A stretch of 64,000 nt of DNA from a virus (Duplodnaviria; Heunggongvirae; Uroviricota; Caudoviricetes): the IMG/VR virus record IMGVR_UViG_2740892441_000001; one strand, 5' to 3'. Position 1 is the stretch's first letter. Every line of letters starts with the position of its first letter. Under the pieces are notes generated by a model. It worked only from the letters and a program-made list of their open reading frames with translations, did no database searches and was not told the origin of the DNA. Below are positions 1-63,216 of this stretch, piece by piece. Made by a program: the position numbers and the translations under genes.

Positions 1-2
1 TG

Positions 3-164
3 GACGCTGGCTATACTCAAGCCAACCAGTTGATCAATCTTTGCGAACGTCTCGGACTTGTTGAAAAAGTCAAAGGAGCTGGGAGCGCAAAAGCTGGTAC
101 TCAGCAATATCGCTTTATCAAGAATGATTTCTACAATTATCTAGCTGATGCTTTCAAAGCGTAA
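3..164 (+). CDS. hypothetical protein, 3-prime fragment (gene starts upstream of window)
   Basis: Open frame from window edge to TAA at 162-164 (53 codons, no start codon in window); followed by hairpin and RBS of next gene. Confidence 0.3.
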   Translation, partial: DAGYTQANQLINLCERLGLVEKVKGAGSAKAGTQQYRFIKNDFYNYLADAFKA

Positions 165-211
165 TTAATGGAATCAAGCGCCCACTATGGGCGCTTTAAA
201 GGAGCTTTAAA

Positions 212-415
212 ATGGTCAGCTATGACAAGATCCGCGCGGAATATCGCGCAAAGTATCGCGCTTACAAACTGGAATTAATCGATGATTTGATCGCGCAACG
301 CGACCAATTAAATTTTACGTTTTCTGATTTGCTTAACAGCAAGCGAGATTGCAAGCGCAAACGTGAATATTTACGTTTAAGCGCATTAATCGGAAAACTT
401 CAAAATTCTATTTAA
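212..415 (+). CDS. hypothetical small basic protein
   Basis: 67 aa ORF; AAGGAG-type RBS about 8 nt upstream of ATG; same RBS as next gene. Confidence 0.45.
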   Translation: MVSYDKIRAEYRAKYRAYKLELIDDLIAQRDQLNFTFSDLLNSKRDCKRKREYLRLSALIGKLQNSI

Positions 416-435
416 TTTTTTTAAGGAGCTTAATC

Positions 436-663
436 ATGTTTGTTCTTATCGCTGGCGTTAACGTCCACAATGAATATTGTGTTAATGATATTGCTGGGAT
501 CGCTGGTTACGCTGGATCTGTTGAGCTTATAGATGAAACGACGCGCAAAATTGACTTATTGAGCGACCAGGAGCGAAAAAAAGCAGACGTGAACGACGCT
601 GATATATTTTTAATGTTAAAAGCGTTTGTAGAAATGGGATTTGAAATCAGTTTACATAAATAA
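436..663 (+). CDS. hypothetical small protein
   Basis: 75 aa ORF; TAAGGAG RBS upstream; followed by intrinsic terminator hairpin. Confidence 0.5.
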   Translation: MFVLIAGVNVHNEYCVNDIAGIAGYAGSVELIDETTRKIDLLSDQERKKADVNDADIFLMLKAFVEMGFEISLHK

Positions 664-668
664 AATCG

Positions 669-692
669 AGCGCCCACTATGGGCGCTTTTTT
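669..692 (+). terminator. rho-independent terminator (GC hairpin AGCGCCCACTATGGGCGCT + T-run)
   Basis: Perfect inverted repeat followed by TTTTTT; same hairpin also at about 176-196. Confidence 0.6.
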
Positions 693-713
693 CGTTTCCA
701 ATACTCCCACCAT

Positions 714-739
714 AACGCGCCATCATTGGCGCGTTTTTT
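714..739 (+). terminator. rho-independent terminator (AACGCGCC..GGCGCGTT + T-run)
   Basis: Inverted repeat followed by TTTTTT. Confidence 0.55.
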
Positions 740-1144
740 ATTGTCTTTAACTCACTCCAACAACATAAAAATAAGCGCCAAAATAACGCCATAGACGCGA
801 TTTTATATCCTCGCCAGTACATACCCATTACTTAACACATTAACGCGCTTAAAACGCGTTATATTGCGCTATAGAGTATGGTTAATCGTTGGCTTTTAGT
901 CTTGCTTTATGATCCGCGTTTATTTGTCGGCGCGGATCGGCATTTTGTTTTGTTCCGTATCCGCTCGCGTATTATGTGCGCGTGATTTTTCACATAATCA
1001 CACCACTTAATCACGTATGTGATTATGCTACGAAAGAAATCTGGATGTCTCAGGCGACGAAAGTCATCATAATTTTCCCCGCTCACCTGTCCGACAACCG
1101 CTGGTTGGATTCAACCAGCTTCCCGATGTTTTTTCTATATAAAG

Positions 1145-1235
1145 GCGAATGCAGCCGTTTCCCGAAAAAATCCTGGCCGTTTCCCGTCGGCTCATGAATG
1201 CGTTCCTCGCCGTTTCTGAAAATTTCCCTGCGGCA
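1145..1235. repeat. three direct copies of GCCGTTTC(C)CGAA-like motif
   Basis: Motif recurs as a 6-copy array at about 4785-4910. Confidence 0.4.
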
Positions 1236-1279
1236 GCTGGTGGCTATAGAGAAAGGGCCGTTTCTGGCCCTCTTCTCAG

Positions 1280-1762
1280 TTACACGCCATCAAGGATGTG
1301 GATGCGGTTGCTTGCGTATACATTCAGCATAAAGTTAGCGCAAAACAGTTTCCATGTATCAACGCCAGCGGTATACGTAATGTTTTTGCATTTAATCGCA
1401 TTGTTGGCGATCCGCATCCCCTGCGATACTGCTTCATCGTCGGAAAATTTGAACGACGATTGAGTTTTAATCCAGACAGAAATCTGCGTAGCGAACTCAA
1501 TCAGCTTGGACTGGCAGAATCGCCCGGAGCGCACCGGAAAGACGAACGTTCCGAATCCAGAATTTACCACATACGCTTTCTCAAATACCCGCGAGTAACG
1601 ACGATTGCCAATGATGTCGCGTGCAATAATGCATTTTTCTTGTGCTGACAGTTCTACCGTCTCATTGTCGCGCCATGCACCAAGTACTCGTTTTTCAATG
1701 TCAGAGAACGTTACAGCGATATTGCCATGTGCGGGTGCGTTTACAGTAGCGATAAAATTCAT
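1280..1762 (-). CDS. hypothetical protein
   Basis: 160 aa ORF; AAGGAAA RBS before ATG; conserved promoter-like motif immediately upstream. Confidence 0.55.
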   Translation of the reverse strand: MNFIATVNAPAHGNIAVTFSDIEKRVLGAWRDNETVELSAQEKCIIARDIIGNRRYSRVFEKAYVVNSGFGTFVFPVRSGRFCQSKLIEFATQISVWIKTQSSFKFSDDEAVSQGMRIANNAIKCKNITYTAGVDTWKLFCANFMLNVYASNRIHILDGV

Positions 1763-1783
1763 GATTATTTCCTTATCGTAAAT

Positions 1784-1830
1784 AACAAATTGTTTTCTTG
1801 TTGGTGTTAATTATCGTTGTACGAATAAGG
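1784..1830 (-). promoter_or_regulatory. conserved early-promoter-like motif (minus-strand reading GATAAT-AACACCAA-AAGAAAACAATTTGTT)
   Basis: About 40 bp element recurring upstream of at least 10 minus-strand genes; contains GATAAT -10-like hexamer and AACAA.TTGTT palindrome. Confidence 0.35.
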
Positions 1831-1844
1831 CGTCAAAGTGGAAA

Positions 1845-1932
1845 GTTGCGGTAGCCGGACGGGAACAGGTGGGTTTTTCGGTTGCCTGGAGGTAAGAGGT
1901 TGGTGTTTTTAGCCTGCGGGAAACAGGATGGT
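1845..1932. repeat. about 80 bp repeat element (GGTAGCC..AGGTGGGT..TTTTCGGT..GCCTG..AAGAGGTTGGT..GTTTTT), second copy at 5505-5590
   Basis: Two copies alignable by eye; each looks like an internal tandem duplication of a ~30 bp unit. Confidence 0.4.
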
Positions 1933-1937
1933 CATTT

Positions 1938-1961
1938 AAGGCCACCAATGCTGGTGGCCTT
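1938..1961 (-). terminator. hairpin AAGGCCACC-AATGC-TGGTGGCCTT, putative terminator or processing site
   Basis: Same hairpin family at 2409-2432, 11238-11258 and 15421-15441, always between a gene end and the next promoter motif. Confidence 0.35.
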
Positions 1962-1966
1962 AGTCT

Positions 1967-2248
1967 TTAGTGGAGCAGACCGATGTCGATGGTATCCCCT
2001 GAATCCCCCACACGGATCATCAGCATGGCGAAGGCGTTTAGTGGATAACTGGCGTGCCATTCAGGGAAGCGGTCATCTCGCATGAAGTCGGCAATGTCGT
2101 AAACGCAGCCCTCAAAGTGGAAGAATCGCGTGCTTACCTGCTCGTCATATTCCACATGATCCATTTCTTGCTGTTCTGTTTCCGGCAAGTCCAGCCATGA
2201 TTCAAGGAATACATTTTGTGCTTTAGGGGTAATGGTGAAATCAGTCAT
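1967..2248 (-). CDS. hypothetical protein
   Basis: Start moved to internal ATG with GAGGA RBS; the longer track ORF would read through the promoter motif. Confidence 0.4.
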   Translation of the reverse strand: MTDFTITPKAQNVFLESWLDLPETEQQEMDHVEYDEQVSTRFFHFEGCVYDIADFMRDDRFPEWHASYPLNAFAMLMIRVGDSGDTIDIGLLH

Positions 2249-2267
2249 GAGCATATCCTCACTGCGT

Positions 2268-2325
2268 AAACATATTGTTTTCTTGTTGGTGTAATTATCG
2301 CAGTGTAGATAAGGCATAAAAGAAG
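2268..2325 (-). promoter_or_regulatory. conserved early-promoter-like motif
   Basis: AAACATATTGTTTTCTTGTTGGTGTAATTATCGCAG matches the recurring motif. Confidence 0.35.
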
Positions 2326-2583
2326 TTAATACAGGCTGAATACACAAGAAAGGTTCTGGAAGTTGATAGCCAGGTTTCAAACTAACCTTCGGTTATTAAA
2401 AGTCATTTAAGACCACCAATGCTGGTGGCCTTAATAATTATCGCCCGATTACGCTAAGGATCTTTTCCTCAACTGATTTGTTGTTGCGACTAAACTGCCT
2501 TGCGTATCTGATGACAGAAGAGGCGTTTTGCTTTCTGACCATCTCGGCTCTTTCCTTCAGGCGTTTCTTGAAATCGCCCATAT

Positions 2584-2976
2584 TTACCACCAGGCGCAGA
2601 ACGTCAGTCTGTTATTGTGAAAGTCGTAATTATTAATCAGCTCTTCTACAAGTGCTTTCAACTCCCCCACGTCACGCCAGTAATCTTCGTCATAATCCAT
2701 GCTGCCAAAGTAAAAACCTCCAGTCGGCTCGAACTCATCCTGAGTAGGCAGAAGGGCTTCGCAATTACTCTCGTTGAGACGAATCAGAGTAGCCTTTAGA
2801 GCGCAAAGATCATTCTTTGTAATTTCTAAAAATTTAAAACTATCAACTTTGCCTACGTTCCGATTCACCCACCCAACAAGCGCATTAAACTTATAAAAAT
2901 AGCCTACTTCCTTTCTGGCTGCTTCGTTATTCAGATCGTTTTTTGGCTGCGTCTCGATATAGATATCAAGTCCCAT
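2584..2976 (-). CDS. hypothetical protein
   Basis: 130 aa ORF with AAGGAAA RBS. Confidence 0.55.
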   Translation of the reverse strand: MGLDIYIETQPKNDLNNEAARKEVGYFYKFNALVGWVNRNVGKVDSFKFLEITKNDLCALKATLIRLNESNCEALLPTQDEFEPTGGFYFGSMDYDEDYWRDVGELKALVEELINNYDFHNNRLTFCAWW

Positions 2977-3100
2977 GATGGTTTCCTTATTAAGTATTAA
3001 GTTGCTTCAGTGAAAGCATTTTCACAAATCAGATAAGGCAGAAAACAAATTATTATCGGGCATAAGAAAATGGCGCGGTTTACGCGCCATTTAAAGAGGA

Positions 3101-3496
3101 TTAAGCGAATACGCTTTCAGGGATTAAGGTATCAGCAGGAATGCCGGATGTAATACGCAGACCGTACTGGCCAATCCAGGTGGTGCTGGTGTTCAGGCTG
3201 GAGGCGAATACGGAATTAACCATATTCATCATGGTTTCAAACACCTCTTCATCAACCTGGCGGAAGTAGTTCTCGATTTTCAGCAGCAGCGGGTCAGTTG
3301 CATCGAGAATGGACTGGTATTGAGTCGCGTACTCGCCGCCGGAGGCATCACCTTTACGCACGATCGTACTGGCCTGTACTTCGGCACCAGTTTCGGTGTT
3401 GTACGTAACAACGGTGATTTTTGCCACATTCTTACCTTCGGCGGTTTCAGAGGCATAGTAAACATCAACTGTCAGTTTTTCGCGTTTAACGGTCAT
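3101..3496 (-). CDS. hypothetical protein
   Basis: Start refined to internal ATG with GGAGAG RBS (131 aa). Confidence 0.5.
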   Translation of the reverse strand: MTVKREKLTVDVYYASETAEGKNVAKITVVTYNTETGAEVQASTIVRKGDASGGEYATQYQSILDATDPLLLKIENYFRQVDEEVFETMMNMVNSVFASSLNTSTTWIGQYGLRITSGIPADTLIPESVFA

Positions 3497-3539
3497 TTCA
3501 CTCTCCGTAGTGTATTGGTTATTTTTATATTCTATGATC

Positions 3540-4910: not shown

Positions 4911-5089
4911 GTATGGACCGAAGGCTGACCGTAGGGGTGTTACGGGGGATAAAATCAGTAGTTGAATAAATACGAAAAAGGAGGCGACACCCCTCCTTCC
5001 CTCCCCACTTATACATACCTGGCTTCTTCGCTATGCATGTTGTGTTTTCTTCGTGTTTTATCTGTTTCAACCTCTCTATAGGCGTTAAT

Positions 5090-5500
5090 GCTCACTCCTT
5101 CCAGAACGTTCTATACGGCAACTATTTCTGTTGGTGAATTGGGTGTGTTGTTTTCTCTGTCGGTGTATGTGGTTTCGTTCGTTTTGCGGTGGTTCTTCTA
5201 TAGGGTGTTCTCGTCGTTTTGGTGATTGTTCTTCTCCGTCTATGGAGTAATGGCAGGTGGGCGATTCCTTTCGTTATTGTGTTTGAGTTGTTTGTCTGGA
5301 GTGCGTGAAGGGCTTTTGTAGTTATTCGTGTATTGGGTAATGGCGTTTCCCGTGATTGTTCTGTTTCGTGTCTTTTGGGATTGAAGAATCCTTGCGGTAA
5401 CAGGCTTCGTTGGGGTTTCAGTGATTCTGGTGTTTCTTCGCTGTTTGGGTAATGGCGTGTCGTGGGTATCGCGCGTATGAATGTTTTCGGATTGCCTGTG
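5090..5500. repeat. G+T-rich low-complexity tract (plus strand), ORF-free
   Basis: Extreme strand compositional skew; the only ORFs are low-complexity minus-strand artefacts. Confidence 0.45.
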
Positions 5501-5504
5501 AAAG

Positions 5505-5590
5505 TTAGGTTGGTTGTCCGGTAGCCTGGGAAGAAGAGGTGGGTCTTTTCGGTAGCCTGCCATAAAGAGGTTGGTTGTTTTTGGGAATGG
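5505..5590. repeat. second copy of the ~80 bp repeat element seen at 1845-1932
   Basis: Alignable by eye to 1845-1932. Confidence 0.4.
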
Positions 5591-5980
5591 CATATGCGTT
5601 ATTTAGTTGTTTTGTTATGCCTGAAAATAAGTTGTTTATATGGTTATGTAACGCAACGGGAACGATTTTGAGCGTGTGTTTTTGTTGGTAGTGTGTTGGG
5701 TCGTCTGTGGTGAAAATTGGACGCTGTGGCGCTGTCTGCTGCGTAGGATTGCGGGTATAAGAAGTAATGTGTGAAAACGTCAATTTTTTAGACCAAATCG
5801 GGTGAAAGCGTTGACGTTTCGTTGATCTGTTATTCAGTTGTTTTCTTGTTTGTATAAACAACTATAACCTATTGATATTTAAGGGTGTGATTGCAGGTAT
5901 GGAAGGGGAGTAGTGGCGATCAACGGATTCTTATAGAAAAGAATCAAATTGTGACCGCCATTATCAATAAGTTGCAACCG

Positions 5981-6550
5981 TTAGTTGTTCAGATAAACAT
6001 TTGGAACACGGACGTAGAAGTTCCTGTCACCGGTAAGTTCCAGAGTAATGTTAATGTCATTACCATTGTCTAGTGTAGCCGTTGCTCTATAGAACTTATC
6101 CGTCACCTTGTCCTCTATTGTCACCTTCATACATTTTGGTGCAGTCGAACCGTTATTCTCTTTCAGAATAGTTGTCACGAGAGGGCAGGCTGCTTCTTCA
6201 AGAGCAACCTCGTCCTTGTGTGGGATGCCGATGAAGATAATCCAAGCCAGCGACGCAACGATTATGATAAATGGCACTCTGCTGCCTTTTGTAATAGTCG
6301 CGCGCTTCCAGAGATAGACAGGCAGGAGGAATACCCCCCATAGAATTGAAGGTGGTTCACAGCCAGACTCCGATAGAGCCATTCTGTCAGCTACTAACAA
6401 ACCGATGGTAGTTACACCCCCAATTATAATAGCGTAATTGGTATACTCTTCCGGCAATACTCCAAAGAAGAAAGGCATGAACGCTAGAATCCACGCATAA
6501 ATGTTATTCAGAGGTTTTGTTTGTTGGTTCTGGGTTTCCATCACATCCAT
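5981..6550 (-). CDS. hypothetical membrane protein (several hydrophobic segments)
   Basis: 189 aa with multiple hydrophobic stretches. Confidence 0.5.
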   Translation of the reverse strand: MDVMETQNQQTKPLNNIYAWILAFMPFFFGVLPEEYTNYAIIIGGVTTIGLLVADRMALSESGCEPPSILWGVFLLPVYLWKRATITKGSRVPFIIIVASLAWIIFIGIPHKDEVALEEAACPLVTTILKENNGSTAPKCMKVTIEDKVTDKFYRATATLDNGNDINITLELTGDRNFYVRVPNVYLNN

Positions 6551-6702
6551 TCCATCACATAAAAATCGCTTTTATATATTATCAATTTTCTCACTTGTAT
6601 AACCTAAATACGCATCCGTTTATCAATCCACCTTCCACAAACATCAGCTTTGGCTATGAAAAATGACAATCTCAAAGTGAAACCATTATCATAGGATAAC
6701 GA

Positions 6703-6888
6703 TTAGATGAGATGGTCTAATTCATCATCTATCATCGCTTTAACACTTGAGTCATTAACCCCGTATTGATTTATGAGCCGTTTCAGCTCCGGTGAAAACT
6801 GAAGGTAGATATCGTGGGCGTTTTTCACTGTAGGTTCAACGCCACGCATTTCAAGCGCCTTTAGTAGATATGAGTCTTCTTTAAGCAT
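6703..6888 (-). CDS. hypothetical small protein
   Basis: 61 aa ORF in operon context. Confidence 0.35.
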   Translation of the reverse strand: MLKEDSYLLKALEMRGVEPTVKNAHDIYLQFSPELKRLINQYGVNDSSVKAMIDDELDHLI

Positions 6889-6924
6889 AAATTCTCCGTT
6901 ATCTAGTATGAAGCGATTGCCGGA

Positions 6925-7233
6925 TTACCATTGCCAGCACTCAAGCCCTTCAACGACCGGTGCGCCACAATCAAAATGTACAGAGTCAAAGCCTACATCA
7001 AGTACTTTCTGAATGTTCGCAATCGCGCCCTCGGATATACCATATCGACGCAACTCATCTTTCCAGTCATCGTCCTGTAACCCGGCGTGGACAATGCAAC
7101 CGTACTCAATTTGTGAAACCCAATCCAGCTCATTGCTTGCGATCATGAATCGGCGAGCATCTTCCTCTGATGTATGAGATGAGCTGATCAATGCCACCTG
7201 GTAGGCTTGGGTAATGTTCAACATTTCAACCAC
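6925..7233 (-). CDS. hypothetical protein
   Basis: 102 aa ORF; promoter motif pair immediately upstream. Confidence 0.5.
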   Translation of the reverse strand: MVEMLNITQAYQVALISSSHTSEEDARRFMIASNELDWVSQIEYGCIVHAGLQDDDWKDELRRYGISEGAIANIQKVLDVGFDSVHFDCGAPVVEGLECWQW

Positions 7234-7238
7234 TCCGA

Positions 7239-7303
7239 AACAATTTGTTTTCTTATGTGGCTTATTATCTCAATCAACAAAAGGCAGAAAACAAATTGTT
7301 TTA
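7239..7303 (-). promoter_or_regulatory. two adjacent copies of the conserved promoter-like motif; the hairpin that usually follows is missing where host-like DNA begins
   Basis: AAACAATTTGTTTTCTTATGTGG...AAAAGGCAGAAAACAAATTGTTTT. Confidence 0.35.
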
Positions 7304-7337
7304 GGGTTTGTTAAAGTCAGAAGGGATTGTGTCTATA

Positions 7338-7372
7338 TGAAAATGCCCAGCGTATTGCCGGGCATTGTGAAG
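7338..7372 (-). terminator. metG terminator hairpin (AATGCCC..GGGCATT + U-run on minus strand)
   Basis: GC stem followed by TTTT on the metG sense strand just after the stop codon. Confidence 0.5.
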
Positions 7373-7385
7373 AATGGTTGCTTAA

Positions 7386-9419
7386 TTACTTAACCTGGTG
7401 GCCAGGTTTAGCACCAGCATCCGGGCTTAACAGGAAGATGTCTTTCCCGCCGGGGCCAGCAGCCATCACCATGCCTTCGGAGATACCGAAACGCATTTTA
7501 CGCGGAGCCAGGTTAGCCACCATAATGGTGTGACGGCCAATCAGTGCCTGTGGGTCTGGATAAGCGGAACGGATGCCTGAGAAGACATTGCGTTTTTCAC
7601 CGCCGAGATCCAGCGTCAGGCGCAGCAGTTTGTCAGAACCTTCAACAAAGTCTGCGTTTTCGATCAGCGCCACGCGCAGGTCAACTTTGGCAAAGTCGTC
7701 AAAGGTGATGGTTTCCTGAATCGGGTCGTCTGCCAGCGGGCCAGTAACTGGCGCGGCAGTAGCTTTCACTTCTTCTTTAGACGCTTCCACCAATGCTTCC
7801 ACCTGTTTCATGTCGATACGGTTATACAGTGCTTTGAACGGATTCACTTTATGGCCCAGCAGCGGTTGCTGGATACCATCCCAGGTCAGTTCTGTATTCA
7901 GGAATGCTTCTGCACGTTCAGTCAGTTTCGGCAGTACCGGCTTCAGGTACGTCATCAGCACGCGGAACAGGTTAATGCCCATAGAGCAAATCGCCTGCAG
8001 ATCGGCATCGCGTCCTTCCTGCTTCGCCACCACCCACGGAGCCTGTTCATCGACATAGCGGTTAGCCAGGTCAGCCAATGCCATGATTTCACGGATAGCT
8101 TTACCAAATTCGCGGCTTTCCCATGCTTCGCCAATCACTTCAGCGGCATCAGTAAAGGTTTTGTACAGTTGCGAGTCAGCCAGTTCGCTTGCCAGCACGC
8201 CGTCAAAACGCTTGTTGATAAAGCCTGCATTACGGGAGGCCAGGTTAACCACTTTGTTCACGATATCGGCATTCACGCGCTGAACGAAATCCTCCAGGTT
8301 GAGATCGATATCATCAATGCGCGAAGAGAGTTTCGCAGTGTAGTAGTAACGCAGGCTGTCGGCGTCAAAATGATTCATCCAGGTGCTGGCTTTAATAAAG
8401 GTGCCGCGAGACTTGGACATCTTCGCGCCGTTCACCGTCACATAGCCGTGAACAAACAGGTTGGTCGGCTTGCGGAAGTTGCTGCCTTCCAGCATGGCAG
8501 GCCAGAACAGGCTGTGGAAGTAAACGATATCTTTACCGATGAAGTGGTACAGCTCGGCGGTGGAGTCTTTCTTCCAGTATTCATCGAAGCTGGTAGTGTC
8601 GCCGCGCTTGTCGCACAGATTCTTGAAGGAACCCATGTAGCCAATCGGTGCGTCCAGCCAGACGTAGAAATATTTACCCGGCGCGTTCGGAATTTCAAAA
8701 CCGAAGTAAGGTGCGTCGCGGGAGATATCCCACTGTTGCAGACCAGATTCAAACCACTCCTGCATTTTGTTTGCCACCTGCTCCTGCAACGCACCGCTGC
8801 GGGTCCATGCCTGCAACATTTCGCTGAAAGAGGGCAGATCAAAGAAGAAGTGTTCAGAATCACGCATTACCGGCGTAGCGCCAGAAACTACCGATTTCGG
8901 CTCAATCAGTTCAGTCGGGCTGTAGGTCGCGCCGCAAACTTCACAGTTATCGCCGTATTGATCTGGCGCTTTACATTTCGGACAGGTGCCTTTCACAAAA
9001 CGATCCGGCAGGAACATGCCTTTTTCCGGGTCGTACAACTGAGAGATAGTGCGGTTTTTAATAAAACCGTTCTCTTTCAGGCGAGTATAGATAAGCTCAG
9101 ACAGCTGGCGGTTCTCTTCGCTGTGCGTCGAGTGATAGTTGTCATAGCTGATGTTAAAGCCTGCGAAATCAGTCTGGTGTTCCTGGCTCATTTCGCCAAT
9201 CATCTGTTCCGGTGTGATACCAAGCTGCTGTGCTTTCAGCATGATCGGCGTACCGTGGGCATCGTCGGCGCAGATGAAGTTGACCTCGTGGCCGCGCATT
9301 CGCTGGTAACGGACCCAGACATCAGCCTGGATGTGCTCCAGCATATGGCCGAGGTGGATTGAGCCGTTAGCGTACGGCAGCGCGCACGTCACCAGAATTT
9401 TCTTCGCGACTTGGGTCAT
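7386..9419 (-). CDS. metG: methionyl-tRNA synthetase
   Basis: 677 aa translation matches E. coli MetG along its length as recalled from memory ([31 protein letters not shown]...KPGHQVK); start set at the MTQVAKK ATG, upstream extension of the track ORF judged spurious. Confidence 0.95.
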
Positions 9420-9576
9420 AGTAGGCATTACTTCTTTGTAGTGAAAAGGGGCTTGATAGTAACAAAATGGCCTTATGTCTGCCATGTGATAACAGCATTT
9501 CTCATAAATGATTAAATGTCGTAGCTGGAGTACACTACAAGGCGACAATTGCGCAAATTAAAATAAAGGAGACGGG

Positions 9577-10677
9577 ATGAGCGAGTCCAAATCGCCGGAT
9601 GCCCTGAGAGCAATGGTAGCCGGTACGCTGGCTAATTTTCAGCACCCAACCCTGAAGCACAACCTGACTACGCTTAAAGCGTTACACCATGTTGCGTTGA
9701 TGGATGACACACTGCATGTCGAACTAATCATGCCTTTCGTGTGGAATAAGCCTTTTGAAGACCTGAAAGAGCAATGTAGTGGTGATCTGCTCCGTATCAC
9801 TGGCGCAAAGGCTATCGACTGGAAGCTGTCGTACAACATTGCCACGCTTAAGCGCGTCAAAAACCAACCAGGCATTAATGGCGTTAAGAACATCATCGCC
9901 GTCAGCTCAGGCAAGGGCGGTGTAGGCAAATCGTCCACAGCAGTAAACTTGGCACTGGCGTTGGCTGCTGAAGGTGCGAAAGTTGGTATTTTGGATGCCG
10001 ATATCTACGGTCCATCAATTCCAACCATGCTGGGTGCGGAAAACCAACGTCCAACCTCACCGGACGGTACTCACATGGCACCTATCATGTCTCATGGCCT
10101 GGCAACCAACTCTATTGGTTATCTGGTCACCGACGACAATGCAATGGTGTGGCGTGGACCGATGGCCAGCAAGGCGTTAATGCAGATGTTGCAGGAAACT
10201 CTATGGCCTGATCTGGACTATCTCGTTCTCGATATGCCGCCGGGCACTGGTGATATTCAATTGACGCTGGCGCAGAACATTCCTGTAACTGGTGCTGTTG
10301 TGGTAACTACGCCGCAAGATATCGCGCTGATCGATGCGAAGAAAGGCATTGTGATGTTCGAAAAAGTCGAAGTGCCGGTACTGGGTATCGTCGAAAACAT
10401 GAGTGTGCATATTTGCAGTAACTGCGGTCATCACGAGCCAATTTTTGGCACCGGTGGCGCACAGAAGCTGGCCGAGAAATACAACACGCAGTTGTTAGGC
10501 CAAATGCCACTTCATATCTCTCTTCGTGAAGATCTGGATAACGGAACACCAACCGTTATTAGTCGTCCAGATAGCGAATTTACGGCTATTTATCGTGACC
10601 TCGCAGATCGCGTTGCTGCCCAAATGTATTGGCAAGGTGAAGTAATACCTGGCGAAATCGCATTCCGCGCAGTGTGA
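9577..10677 (+). CDS. apbC: Fe-S cluster carrier ATPase ApbC/Mrp
   Basis: 366 aa; strong match to enterobacterial Mrp/ApbC (P-loop SSGKGGVGKS, CSNCGHHEP motif); divergent from metG as in enterobacterial chromosomes. Confidence 0.93.
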   Translation: MSESKSPDALRAMVAGTLANFQHPTLKHNLTTLKALHHVALMDDTLHVELIMPFVWNKPFEDLKEQCSGDLLRITGAKAIDWKLSYNIATLKRVKNQPGINGVKNIIAVSSGKGGVGKSSTAVNLALALAAEGAKVGILDADIYGPSIPTMLGAENQRPTSPDGTHMAPIMSHGLATNSIGYLVTDDNAMVWRGPMASKALMQMLQETLWPDLDYLVLDMPPGTGDIQLTLAQNIPVTGAVVVTTPQDIALIDAKKGIVMFEKVEVPVLGIVENMSVHICSNCGHHEPIFGTGGAQKLAEKYNTQLLGQMPLHISLREDLDNGTPTVISRPDSEFTAIYRDLADRVAAQMYWQGEVIPGEIAFRAV

Positions 10678-10680
10678 TAA

Positions 10681-10704
10681 AAAGGTGGTGCAATGCACCA
10701 CCTA
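10681..10704 (-). terminator. hairpin GGTGGTGCA-ATG-CACCACC with U-run on minus strand (terminator for humD-like gene)
   Basis: Stem-loop followed by TTTTTT on minus strand; T-run overlaps the apbC stop, marking the right junction of the host-like block. Confidence 0.45.
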
Positions 10705-10714
10705 AACAGTTCTC

Positions 10715-11104
10715 CTACATCACAGGACAATCATCAAACTCGCCACTTCTTGCGTCGTTGATAATGTGAGTGATCACACCAAACACGGCATTGCTGCCCG
10801 TGCATCCATCATCATCCTTTGGCAATGCTTCCTTCTTACCAGTTCTTAAATCCTCCAGATGCTGACGTGGATACTTCCGGTATCTTTTTACGCGATATTC
10901 CCCATCCAGAGCACATACAAGAAGAGATCCATCAACAGGAGTGAGTGAGGAATCGACCACCAGCAATGCACCCTGCAATATTCCCTCACGATGATGACTA
11001 TCAGCCGCCCTCATGAAGTAGGTCGCTGAAGGATGTCTAATTATCTGCTGATCAAGAGAAATACGGCTCTCTGCATAATCCGCCGCAGGAGATGGGAAGC
11101 CCAT
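10715..11104 (-). CDS. humD: UmuD'-like S24-family protein lacking the cleavable N-terminal arm (HumD-like)
   Basis: Starts M-GFPSPAADY, aligned to Gly25 of E. coli UmuD (the RecA-mediated cleavage point); in-frame stop 5 codons upstream excludes an N-terminal arm; Ser and Lys of the S24 dyad retained; LexA box upstream. Confidence 0.7.
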   Translation of the reverse strand: MGFPSPAADYAESRISLDQQIIRHPSATYFMRAADSHHREGILQGALLVVDSSLTPVDGSLLVCALDGEYRVKRYRKYPRQHLEDLRTGKKEALPKDDDGCTGSNAVFGVITHIINDARSGEFDDCPVM

Positions 11105-11122
11105 AGCGTTTTCACCTCAAAA

Positions 11123-11142
11123 TACTGTTTATATATACAGTA
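11123..11142. promoter_or_regulatory. LexA (SOS) box TACTGTTTATATATACAGTA
   Basis: Near-perfect CTGT-N8-ACAG palindrome about 20-40 nt upstream of the humD-like start. Confidence 0.65.
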
Positions 11143-11208
11143 TACATGAAAGAAACCCACTTAGTGCAACCGATCGAGACTCTTCACCAAACAAAAATAT
11201 TTTTCTCA

Positions 11209-11258
11209 AATAAGAAAAGGCAGAAAACAAATTGTTTAAGGCCACTAGTTGTGGCCTT
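11209..11258 (-). promoter_or_regulatory. promoter-like motif plus hairpin (AAAAGGCAGAAAACAAATTGTTT + AAGGCCAC..GTGGCCTT)
   Basis: Same composite element as at 15399-15441. Confidence 0.35.
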
Positions 11259-15360: not shown

Positions 15361-15441
15361 CCGTTGTTTTCTAGTTGTGGTTATTTTCACAAATAAGAAA
15401 AGGCAGAAAACAATTTATTCAAGGCCACAACTTATGGCCTT
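15361..15441 (-). promoter_or_regulatory. promoter-like motif plus hairpin
   Basis: TTGTTTTCTAGTTGTGGTTATT...AAAAGGCAGAAAACAATTTATTC AAGGCCA..TGGCCTT. Confidence 0.35.
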
Positions 15442-62968: not shown

Positions 62969-63055
62969 TGGCGGAGAGTAATGGAATCGAACCATCATCG
63001 CTTGCGCAATGGGACGGTTTTCAAGACCGCTTGAGCACCATGCTCTCTACTCTCC
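62969..63055 (-). tRNA. tRNA-Ser(TGA)
   Basis: Hand-folded: acceptor GGAGAGT/ACTCTCC, anticodon loop CTTGAAA, long variable arm, T-loop TTCGATT, encoded CCA; 87 nt. Confidence 0.7.
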
Positions 63056-63063
63056 AATTGTGT

Positions 63064-63139
63064 TGGTGCCGGTTAACGGATTCGAACCGCTGACATCCTG
63101 CTTACAAGGCAGGTGCTCTACCAACTGAGCTAAACCGGC
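63064..63139 (-). tRNA. tRNA-Thr(TGT)
   Basis: Hand-folded: acceptor GCCGGTT/AACCGGC, D-arm GCTC-AGTTGGTA-GAGC, anticodon loop CTTGTAA, T-loop TTCGAAT, encoded CCA; 76 nt. Confidence 0.8.
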
Positions 63140-63141
63140 AT

Positions 63142-63216
63142 TGGCGATGGTGGGTGGATTCGAACCACCGACCAGTTGGTTAACAGCCAACTGCTCTACC
63201 GCTGAGCTACACCATC
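63142..63216 (-). tRNA. tRNA-Asn(GTT)
   Basis: Hand-folded: acceptor GATGGTG/CACCATC, anticodon loop CTGTTAA, T-arm GGTGG-TTCGAAT-CCACC, encoded CCA; 75 nt. Confidence 0.8.

Follow-up and report, generated by a model that had tools for sequence, protein, structure and literature searches.

The metG-apbC block of an SSU5-like phage-plasmid and its counterparts in Escherichia and Shigella

The plasmid-borne isoleucyl-tRNA synthetases MupA and MupB, which are insensitive to the drug and highly divergent, confer inhibitor resistance. Another essential synthetase gene, metG for methionyl-tRNA synthetase (MetRS), is already known from the literature on phage-plasmids, which combine conserved phage genes with variable plasmid-like gene repertoires (Pfeifer et al., 2021, PMC7969092). 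In Shigella sonnei, metG of the phage-plasmid pWPMR2 has been linked to antimicrobial survival (Tam, De Silva et al., medRxiv 10.1101/2024.10.27.24316207, as summarized in PMC12452169), and expression of phage-plasmid metG is reported to produce a subset of cells prone to acquiring resistance to cephalosporins (PMC12452169). A surveillance preprint names the element pWPMR2, assigns it to the SSU5 supergroup and reports it from S. sonnei and from the E. coli clonal complexes CC131, CC23 and CC73; plasmid metG copies have also been described as highly variable (PMC12452169; bioRxiv 10.1101/2025.09.12.675607). A further member is Cyrano, the phage-plasmid pLF82 of strain LF82, which is SSU5-like and has been reported to produce virions and to persist at a copy number of about 5.5 per chromosome (PMC9928086). 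Here, we analyzed the region around metG and the neighboring iron-sulfur (Fe-S) cluster carrier gene apbC in a 64,000-nt stretch of a Caudoviricetes genome (IMG/VR record IMGVR_UViG_2740892441_000001), which as a whole is called the window below. Our comparisons make it highly probable that the metG-apbC block is a genuine and conserved accessory cargo of a clade of SSU5-like phage-plasmids in Escherichia and Shigella, represented by the pECOH89, pLF82/Cyrano and pWPMR2 types.

Occurrence of the block and integrity of its genes

A query covering positions 7250-10750 (3,501 nt, including both junctions) was matched from 1 to 3501 in one piece and with 95-99% identity by approximately 200 plasmid records. 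These plasmids are about 105-115 kb in size, were assembled independently in unrelated projects and belong to Escherichia (191), Shigella (6) and a few others. One-piece matches were also obtained with four phage records, namely Cyrano, two entries designated CMS-2020a and PhiR41_1, which was deposited as a phage with MG1655 as host. Replication as a plasmid and formation of virions are documented for relatives of the element in the window, by the published data on Cyrano and by the deposition of PhiR41_1. The closest block was found on the avian E. coli plasmid pPSUO78_2 (99.1% identity). Cyrano and pMRY16-002_2 aligned contiguously with the window over 4.1-5.6 kb at 96-97% identity, reaching into both flanks, and neighboring genes for ParB, an UvsW-type helicase, a DUF4942 protein, rnhA and tciA/B-like genes are common to all three. 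Cyrano, pECOH89 and PhiR41_1 have the same backbone, the same gene order DUF5983-metG-apbC-humD and the same junctions as the window; their blocks are 95.8-98.6% identical to that analyzed here and the differences are exclusively allelic. The initial annotation had offered two alternatives, an assembly chimera or real capture of host housekeeping genes by a mobile replicon; the one-piece matches across both junctions in about 200 plasmids and four phages uphold capture and speak against a chimera. It had also stated that related phage-plasmids with the block at an equivalent position would make it conserved cargo and not a new event, and such phage-plasmids were found.

Both genes of the block are intact. 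metG (7386-9419, minus strand) encodes a full-length MetRS of 677 amino acids starting with MTQVAKK; a longer, TTG-started open reading frame (ORF) over metG is an artefact of the ORF listing. According to Pfam, the protein comprises the catalytic domain, the anticodon-binding domain (PF19303) and the C-terminal domain for tRNA-binding and dimerisation (PF01588), and it matches the NCBIfam equivalog NF001100 over profile positions 3-676 of 676 with 1017.6 bits (cut-off 587). The signatures HLGH (residues 22-25) and KMSKS (333-337), the zinc knuckle CPKC..CEVC (146-162) and the anticodon-binding tryptophan region WVVAK (462-466) are all preserved. Compared to MetRS of E. coli K-12, the amino acid identity is 98.4%, with 11 substitutions among 677 residues, two of them unique to the plasmid copy. 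Judging from this identity and from a ratio of nonsynonymous to synonymous divergence (dN/dS) of 0.01-0.03, the MetRS of the window would be expected to retain aminoacylation activity. apbC, also called mrp (9577-10677, plus strand), encodes an iron-sulfur cluster carrier P-loop NTPase of 366 amino acids, which matches the equivalog NF008669 over profile positions 5-369 of 369 with 759.3 bits (cut-off 348) and contains the deviant Walker A motif GKGGVGKS (112-119) and the cluster-binding CxxC motif CSNC (280-283). It is 94.5% identical to K-12 ApbC at the amino acid level and carries an N-terminal deletion of three codons relative to the chromosomal forms of 369-370 amino acids. The two genes are divergently oriented with 157 nt between them, as on enterobacterial chromosomes, and the ORFs, the full-length NCBIfam matches and the identity to K-12 bear out the initial description of the block in this respect. 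Homology to K-12 in nucleotide searches (blastn) covers positions 7385-10673, which is approximately from stop codon to stop codon, and includes no chromosomal flank.

The cargo slot, its junctions and regulatory elements

The borders of the block were defined by comparison with relatives that carry other genes at the same site. Pairwise blastn of the window against pGS04EC-1 detected homology only at 6703-7307 and 10715-11144, with the common sequence restarting at CTACATCACAGG, at about 10711; since the homology ends at 7307 and resumes at about 10711, the cargo segment corresponds to 7308-10710, and this segment sets the clade apart from relatives with different cargo in the slot. The cargo segment thus includes two stretches outside the K-12 homology, 7308-7385 on the left and 10678-10710 on the right. 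On the left, the slot is bordered by a backbone gene of the DUF5983 family next to metG (6925-7233, minus strand, 102 amino acids, PF19419, E=8e-13) and on the right by a humD-like gene for an UmuD-type S24 peptidase (10715-11104, minus strand, 219.8 bits for the NCBIfam HumD equivalog). In pGS04EC-1, a gene for a DUF4145 protein of 247 amino acids (locus coordinates 6745-7488) is flanked by the left gene of the window and by humD; this protein has no NCBIfam match and its gene has a bidirectional hairpin of its own. In pNT1F34-108k, the slot is empty and metG, apbC and humD are absent. SSU5 and the Klebsiella phage pJN2-26 contain the DUF5983 anchor with 47% amino acid identity; beside it, SSU5 has YdfZ and LprI and pJN2-26 has a GFA-family gene, and neither contains metG, apbC or humD there. 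In the E. marmotae plasmid NZ_CP146383.1, der, encoding the ribosome-biogenesis GTPase Der/EngA, replaces humD directly 3' of apbC. This der gene is approximately 92% identical to chromosomal der of E. coli, and among the complete E. coli genomes it has matches with 95-99% identity in only about 6 records. Taken together, these relatives show that the site holds variable cargo across the SSU5 supergroup. We also observed der after apbC in the E. coli plasmid NZ_CP148383.1, and the E. coli plasmid NZ_CP027369.1 matched the block in two pieces over 4,367 bp, where the annotation places an HD-domain gene between apbC and the gene for the S24 peptidase, as another variant of the slot.

Each end of the cargo segment contains a hairpin. 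metG is followed by an intrinsic terminator (7340-7366, minus strand) consisting of a 10-bp stem and then UUUUCAUAU in metG sense, with a folding energy of -16.9 kcal/mol (z=-5.0). When aligned with K-12, Escherichia sp. E1V33, Citrobacter and Salmonella, it occupies the position of the chromosomal terminator with another stem sequence; Cyrano has one change in this terminator, which makes the stem perfect. On the right, a hairpin with a 9-bp stem lies between the convergent genes apbC and humD (10683-10703, minus strand, folds of -15.3 and -15.8 kcal/mol). It begins 5 nt past the apbC stop codon and its T-run is on the minus strand, the orientation that terminates humD. The proximity of the apbC stop codon to a humD terminator hairpin, which had been pointed out in the initial annotation, was thus confirmed, with the correction that the hairpin itself does not belong to the backbone conserved around humD: because pGS04EC-1 has a different hairpin at this place, it travels with the cargo and not with humD.

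To the left of the cargo, a backbone regulatory element (7238-7301) contains a perfect 16-nt inverted repeat (7238-7253 and 7286-7301), the right arm of which belongs to the recurring motif AAGGCAGAAAACAAATTGTTT. The motif is present in four plus-strand copies in the window (3035-3055, 7281-7301, 11217-11237 and 15400-15420), compared with 0.02 copies expected. A hairpin follows three of the four copies at a distance of 0-10 nt. In agreement with the initial description of the left flank, the copy at 7281 is the only one without such a hairpin, and the next hairpin after it is the metG terminator, 42 nt away. The AAGGCAGAAAACAAATTGTTT element is probably a terminator tail combined with a promoter or operator for leftward backbone transcription units. 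The backbone homology breakpoint at 7307 in the comparison with pGS04EC-1 lies 6 nt past this motif copy, and with pNT1F34-108k the breakpoint is at 7301. The inverted repeat at 7238-7301 sits directly upstream of the DUF5983 gene.

A target-site duplication or a remnant of an insertion sequence (IS), either of which would mark the junctions as products of transposition, was not detected: no direct repeat, terminal inverted repeat or IS remnant brackets 7308-10710, and no transposase ORF was present within 6900-11100. Among 121 reported pairs of inverted repeats, one touches a junction (7163-7179 and 10711-10727, 15 of 17 bases identical); this 17-nt repeat was rejected as a trace of transposition, as it was estimated to be at chance level.

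The divergent regulatory region (9420-9576), which we characterized by alignment, identity profile and a relaxed promoter scan, is composed of two dissimilar parts. The 55 nt adjoining metG are conserved with the chromosomes and contain an extended -10 element, TGtTACTAT, at about 9456-9464 on the minus strand that is also present in K-12; as a promoter candidate, it was suggested by the relaxed scan and by conservation only. The apbC-proximal part is unlike E. coli, with 38-55% identity, and is in part unalignable to K-12. A ribosome-binding site, AAGGAG, is located upstream of the apbC start codon.

Divergence and history of metG and apbC

Although the two genes are neighbors, their distances from chromosomal homologs differ strongly. 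metG is 94.2% identical to K-12 metG at the nucleotide level, with a synonymous divergence (dS) of 0.28, a nonsynonymous divergence (dN) of 0.008 and a dN/dS of 0.03, and its distance from K-12 equals that of K-12 from the cryptic Escherichia sp. E1V33. All approximately 5,424 chromosomal metG alleles of E. coli are 93.4-94.5% identical to that of the window, compared with 95.5-98% for plasmid alleles. apbC is 81.7% identical to K-12, with a dS of about 1.3-1.7 (about 1.6 in the comparison that gave a dN of 0.035), and is about equally far (77-82%) from Salmonella, Citrobacter, Klebsiella and Enterobacter; for comparison, the dS between apbC of K-12 and of Escherichia E1V33 is 0.58. Along the block, the identity to K-12 switches abruptly at about 9420-9465, from 96-100% at the 5' end of metG via the poorly conserved intergenic part to 75-90% in apbC. 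The proportion of G and C at third codon positions (GC3) is 0.52 for apbC in the window (0.50-0.53 among the phage-plasmid copies), compared with 0.60-0.76 in chromosomal copies and 0.42-0.50 in the backbone, while metG has a GC3 of 0.62, the E. coli value. The comparison of GC content and codon usage proposed in the initial annotation gave a higher GC content in the block (0.49-0.53) than in the flanks (0.39-0.47), with GC3 near the backbone for apbC and E. coli-like for metG.

True phage-plasmid copies of apbC are all at least 95.6% identical to that of the window, and the next matches labeled as plasmids have 78-82% identity. We rejected the latter, which are assigned to Salmonella and Klebsiella, as host-specific versions of the block, as they are chromosomes filed as plasmids. 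PLSDB contains several such entries (CP125156.1, CP061244.1, CP148763.1 and others), which are "plasmids" of several hundred kb to multiple megabases with an ordinary chromosomal metG-apbC locus. Among the matches listed, with one genome per species, the closest chromosomes were approximately 88% identical over the block. A record titled as the chromosome of Enterobacter hormaechei B56 (CP170191.1) was dismissed as a close donor: because its metG is identical to that of K-12 (dS=0), this record does not represent an independent lineage, and we count it, like the misfiled plasmids, among database labelling problems. A protein search with ApbC, in a database clustered at 90% identity, in which finer structure is hidden, found no cluster representative closer than 95%.

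Both metG and apbC are under strong purifying selection. Across 11 phage-plasmid copies, dN/dS (omega) was 0.013 for metG and 0.008 for apbC, and 11 distinct apbC DNA alleles encode only three ApbC proteins, compared with nine MetG protein variants among the same 11 copies. The ApbC protein WP_000004356.1 is annotated on plasmids of E. coli, E. marmotae, E. fergusonii and E. albertii. This occurrence of the same protein in four Escherichia species may point to a role of apbC for the element itself.

In addition, a protein search with ApbC uncovered a second mobile lineage, represented by a 366-residue ApbC with 81% identity in a few third-party E. coli assemblies; it was found neither in PLSDB nor in the 5,426 complete E. 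coli genomes. The gene order is again DUF5983-metG-apbC, for example in GCA_021861085.1 (locus coordinates 5386-9101), to which the window is homologous from 6924 to 10670, and as flanking genes the locus has an Rpn/Transposase_31 gene, an IS605 TnpB gene, hok and genes for a BOF-domain protein and a cytochrome c peroxidase. The second-lineage apbC has the same N-terminal deletion of three codons and is closer to plasmid apbC (76% nucleotide and 81% amino acid identity) than to K-12 (73% and 79%), and at the DNA level it matches phage-plasmid apbC only. Its metG is 96.9% identical to K-12.

Neighbor-joining trees of protein distances (39 taxa, 200 bootstraps) grouped the phage-plasmid MetG clade with Escherichia, either as its sister or nested inside it, in 191 of 200 replicates, while plasmid ApbC was found on a long branch and was sister to Escherichia in only 30. 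With the second lineage included, the mobile ApbC proteins were monophyletic in 155 of 200 replicates and the mobile MetG proteins in one; the mobile ApbC copies moreover have four character states in common that occur in no chromosomal sequence. A merely faster evolution of apbC on the plasmid was rejected: because the dS within phage-plasmids was lower for apbC (0.139) than for metG (0.222), giving a ratio of 0.63 compared with 1.5-2.1 between chromosomes, a faster apbC clock does not explain the discordance. Recombination was evident in metG, with 51% of informative site pairs being incompatible and p<0.001 in a permutation test of the pairwise homoplasy index (PHI) type. In metG of an S. 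sonnei plasmid, a tract of 344 nt spanning 42 consecutive polymorphic sites matches the K-12 chromosome without a difference (p<0.0005), and apbC has short tracts of this kind as well, with 80 nt in Cyrano and 56 nt in Esc6. A recent conversion of the window apbC by a K-12-like allele was not supported (p=0.62), and the same applies to its metG.

From these observations, we infer that an enterobacterial metG-apbC pair may have been taken long ago into the variable slot between the DUF5983 gene and humD, bringing along the shared promoter region and the metG terminator and requiring no transposon. After this single old capture beside DUF5983, apbC would have retained its mobile ancestry, because it is too diverged from host apbC for overwriting, and would have drifted to phage base composition. 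metG, in contrast, is conserved enough to recombine and may therefore have been overwritten piecemeal by host alleles; recombination with chromosomal metG of the host and among phage-plasmids would yield an Escherichia-like mosaic. A more far-reaching and tentative interpretation, in which our confidence stays somewhat below an even chance, is that DUF5983-metG-apbC forms an ancient mobile module older than the split of the two deep mobile lineages. apbC would be a protein-frozen, element-specific Fe-S carrier with a role for the element, metG would be kept host-like by recurrent conversion, the phage-plasmid would shuttle metG alleles between strains and species, and the slot, including its der variant, would collect essential translation-related genes.

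Other explanations for the presence of the block differ in how much of these data they accommodate. A misjoining of a chromosomal contig fragment into a phage-plasmid contig would be consistent with the step up in GC content and with the abrupt end of chromosomal homology at both stop codons. However, one-piece matches show the same junctions in phage genomes and in about 200 complete plasmids of independent origin, and block-specific terminators at both flanks are conserved among plasmids. These matches exclude a chimera for the family and make one very unlikely in the present record; as an overall explanation, it has a negligible probability. The divergence of 5.5-18% between the block and all E. 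coli chromosomes also means that the block cannot be the host's own locus. A recent one-off capture by this replicon from the chromosome of its current host would agree with the 98.4% identity of MetRS to K-12 and with the chromosomal gene order, but the identity of metG to E. coli chromosomes is 94.5% at most, apbC is at about 82%, the intergenic region is partly unalignable and the block is common to approximately 200 elements with an internal dS of up to 0.36; we therefore regard such an event as extremely improbable. The same low probability is assigned to neutral, decaying passenger DNA that merely hitch-hikes with the element: housekeeping duplicates are often redundant, yet none of the 11 copies has a frameshift or a premature stop, the dN/dS is about 0.01 over a dS of up to 0.36, and regulatory and terminator elements were retained.

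More can be said for two separate acquisitions, with apbC and its upstream region obtained early from a non-Escherichia enterobacterium and the whole metG gene later from an Escherichia chromosome, as this would explain the sharp identity discontinuity at 9420-9465 and the discordance of the MetG and ApbC trees. Nevertheless, we consider it rather improbable. Because the divergent pairing of the two genes is universal on chromosomes, a single capture is more economical; moreover, the flank with the metG terminator is unlike any Escherichia sampled, which a recent import of the whole gene would not predict, both mobile lineages pair metG with the same DUF5983 gene and the same type of apbC, and conversion tracts of 56-344 nt were directly seen. 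A different question is what selects for the block. metG and apbC may serve the lytic cycle or counter-defence and not the antibiotic tolerance of the host, by charging of Met-tRNA and initiation during infection or by maturation of an Fe-S enzyme of the element. In favor of such a role, ApbC is at least as conserved as MetRS (omega 0.008, three proteins), which the tolerance phenotype leaves unexplained, a third essential translation-related gene, der, occupies the same slot in some relatives, and the element also has tRNA genes. Conversely, the sole phenotype on record concerns lysogens, and SSU5 and the Klebsiella relatives do without metG-apbC. A lytic or counter-defence role as the driving force thus appears unlikely, although with more to recommend it than two acquisitions, and it is compatible with the block being conserved accessory cargo of the phage-plasmid clade. 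With respect to tRNA genes, we observed a cluster at 62969-63216 on the minus strand, comprising tRNA-Ser (tga), tRNA-Thr (tgt) and tRNA-Asn (gtt), with no tRNA-Met beside the extra metG.

A number of considerations count against the interpretation of an old capture followed by conversion of metG and a benefit from its expression. Neighbor-joining on protein distances is a crude method, and the trees fix no sister group for the mobile ApbC clade. The species sample contained no chromosomes of E. albertii, E. fergusonii or E. marmotae, and a closer donor of apbC than those sampled may exist. metG of the window has no significant conversion tract relative to K-12 (p=0.30), and conversion was seen in relatives only. 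A strict sigma-70 consensus scan of 9420-9576 found no promoter. The claim of antimicrobial survival for plasmid metG comes from a secondary summary. In studies of the chromosomal gene, persistence has been associated with MetRS of reduced function or with impaired editing of homocysteine (PMC11004401), and because it is reduced function that is implicated there, it is not obvious how extra metG copies would give persistence.

Proposed function and comparison with known systems

If the copy number of about 5.5 that was determined for Cyrano alone is transferable, a lysogen would gain a several-fold metG dosage via the retained metG-type promoter, and the element would add a second ApbC Fe-S carrier to the cell. 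Expression of phage-plasmid metG is the feature to which antimicrobial survival, in the sense of tolerance or persistence, has been attributed in the S. sonnei relative in published work. Taken together, the evolutionary details described here suggest that the tolerance story may be incomplete and that the co-carried Fe-S carrier may merit attention as well.

The analysis illustrates that a chromosomal-looking housekeeping block in a phage genome need not be an artefact; hundreds of relatives settle this question without read data. About 4% of the complete E. coli genomes have a second metG on a multicopy infectious replicon (approximately 220 plasmid-borne copies beyond the chromosomal one in 5,426 genomes). 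Because of the published link to antimicrobial survival in epidemic Shigella, it is useful for surveillance to recognize the block when new genomes are assembled. The present analysis adds the constraint on apbC, which is at least as strong as that on metG, the discordant histories of the two genes, the mosaic structure of metG by exchange with the chromosome, the second deep lineage and the cargo slot with its der variant; these evolutionary details would be modest additions to a feature already described, at least for metG.

Elsewhere in the window, positions 5001-6000 have an extreme strand composition, with a GC skew of +0.23 to +0.41 and an AT skew of -0.54. The ORFs of this segment look like low-complexity artefacts and the matching region is unannotated in pMRY16-002_2; no tandem repeats were found in a search of 5.0-6.0 kb.

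Among the systems to which the block can be compared, the chromosomal metG-mrp/apbC locus (b2114/b2113 in E. coli) has the divergent order and the protein families in common with it, as well as the metG-proximal leader and promoter of 55 nt and the position of the metG terminator. In contrast to the chromosome, the neighbors yehE and yehF are missing from the block, its apbC is 18% diverged, has a lower GC3 and is three codons shorter, and the apbC-proximal intergenic part and both terminator stems differ. Like the morons that occupy slots in phage-plasmids, the block brings along a promoter and a terminator and thereby forms a self-contained module, inserted where even close relatives have different genes, but moron-type cargo typically confers resistance, defence or virulence, whereas this cargo consists of core housekeeping genes. 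The closest counterpart is the pWPMR2 type, an SSU5-supergroup phage-plasmid of about 108-111 kb with a second metG; S. sonnei plasmids, for example LR213459 and NZ_CP099775, carry the same block at the same site as the window. The variability of plasmid metG mentioned in the literature matches the nine protein variants in 11 copies and the dS of up to 0.36 described here, and metG of the window is a different allele from that of the S. sonnei plasmid examined, without the 344-nt K-12-like tract of the latter. With MupA and MupB, the block has in common that a second essential synthetase on a mobile element affects antimicrobial survival. However, MupA and MupB are strongly diverged, while the MetRS of the window has 98.4% identity with the enzyme of the host and reaches approximately 33 bits on the MupA/MupB models, for which the cut-off is 1900, so it is not a synthetase of the replacement type. 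For these reasons, an effect of phage-plasmid metG by dosage or regulation is more likely than one by target replacement.

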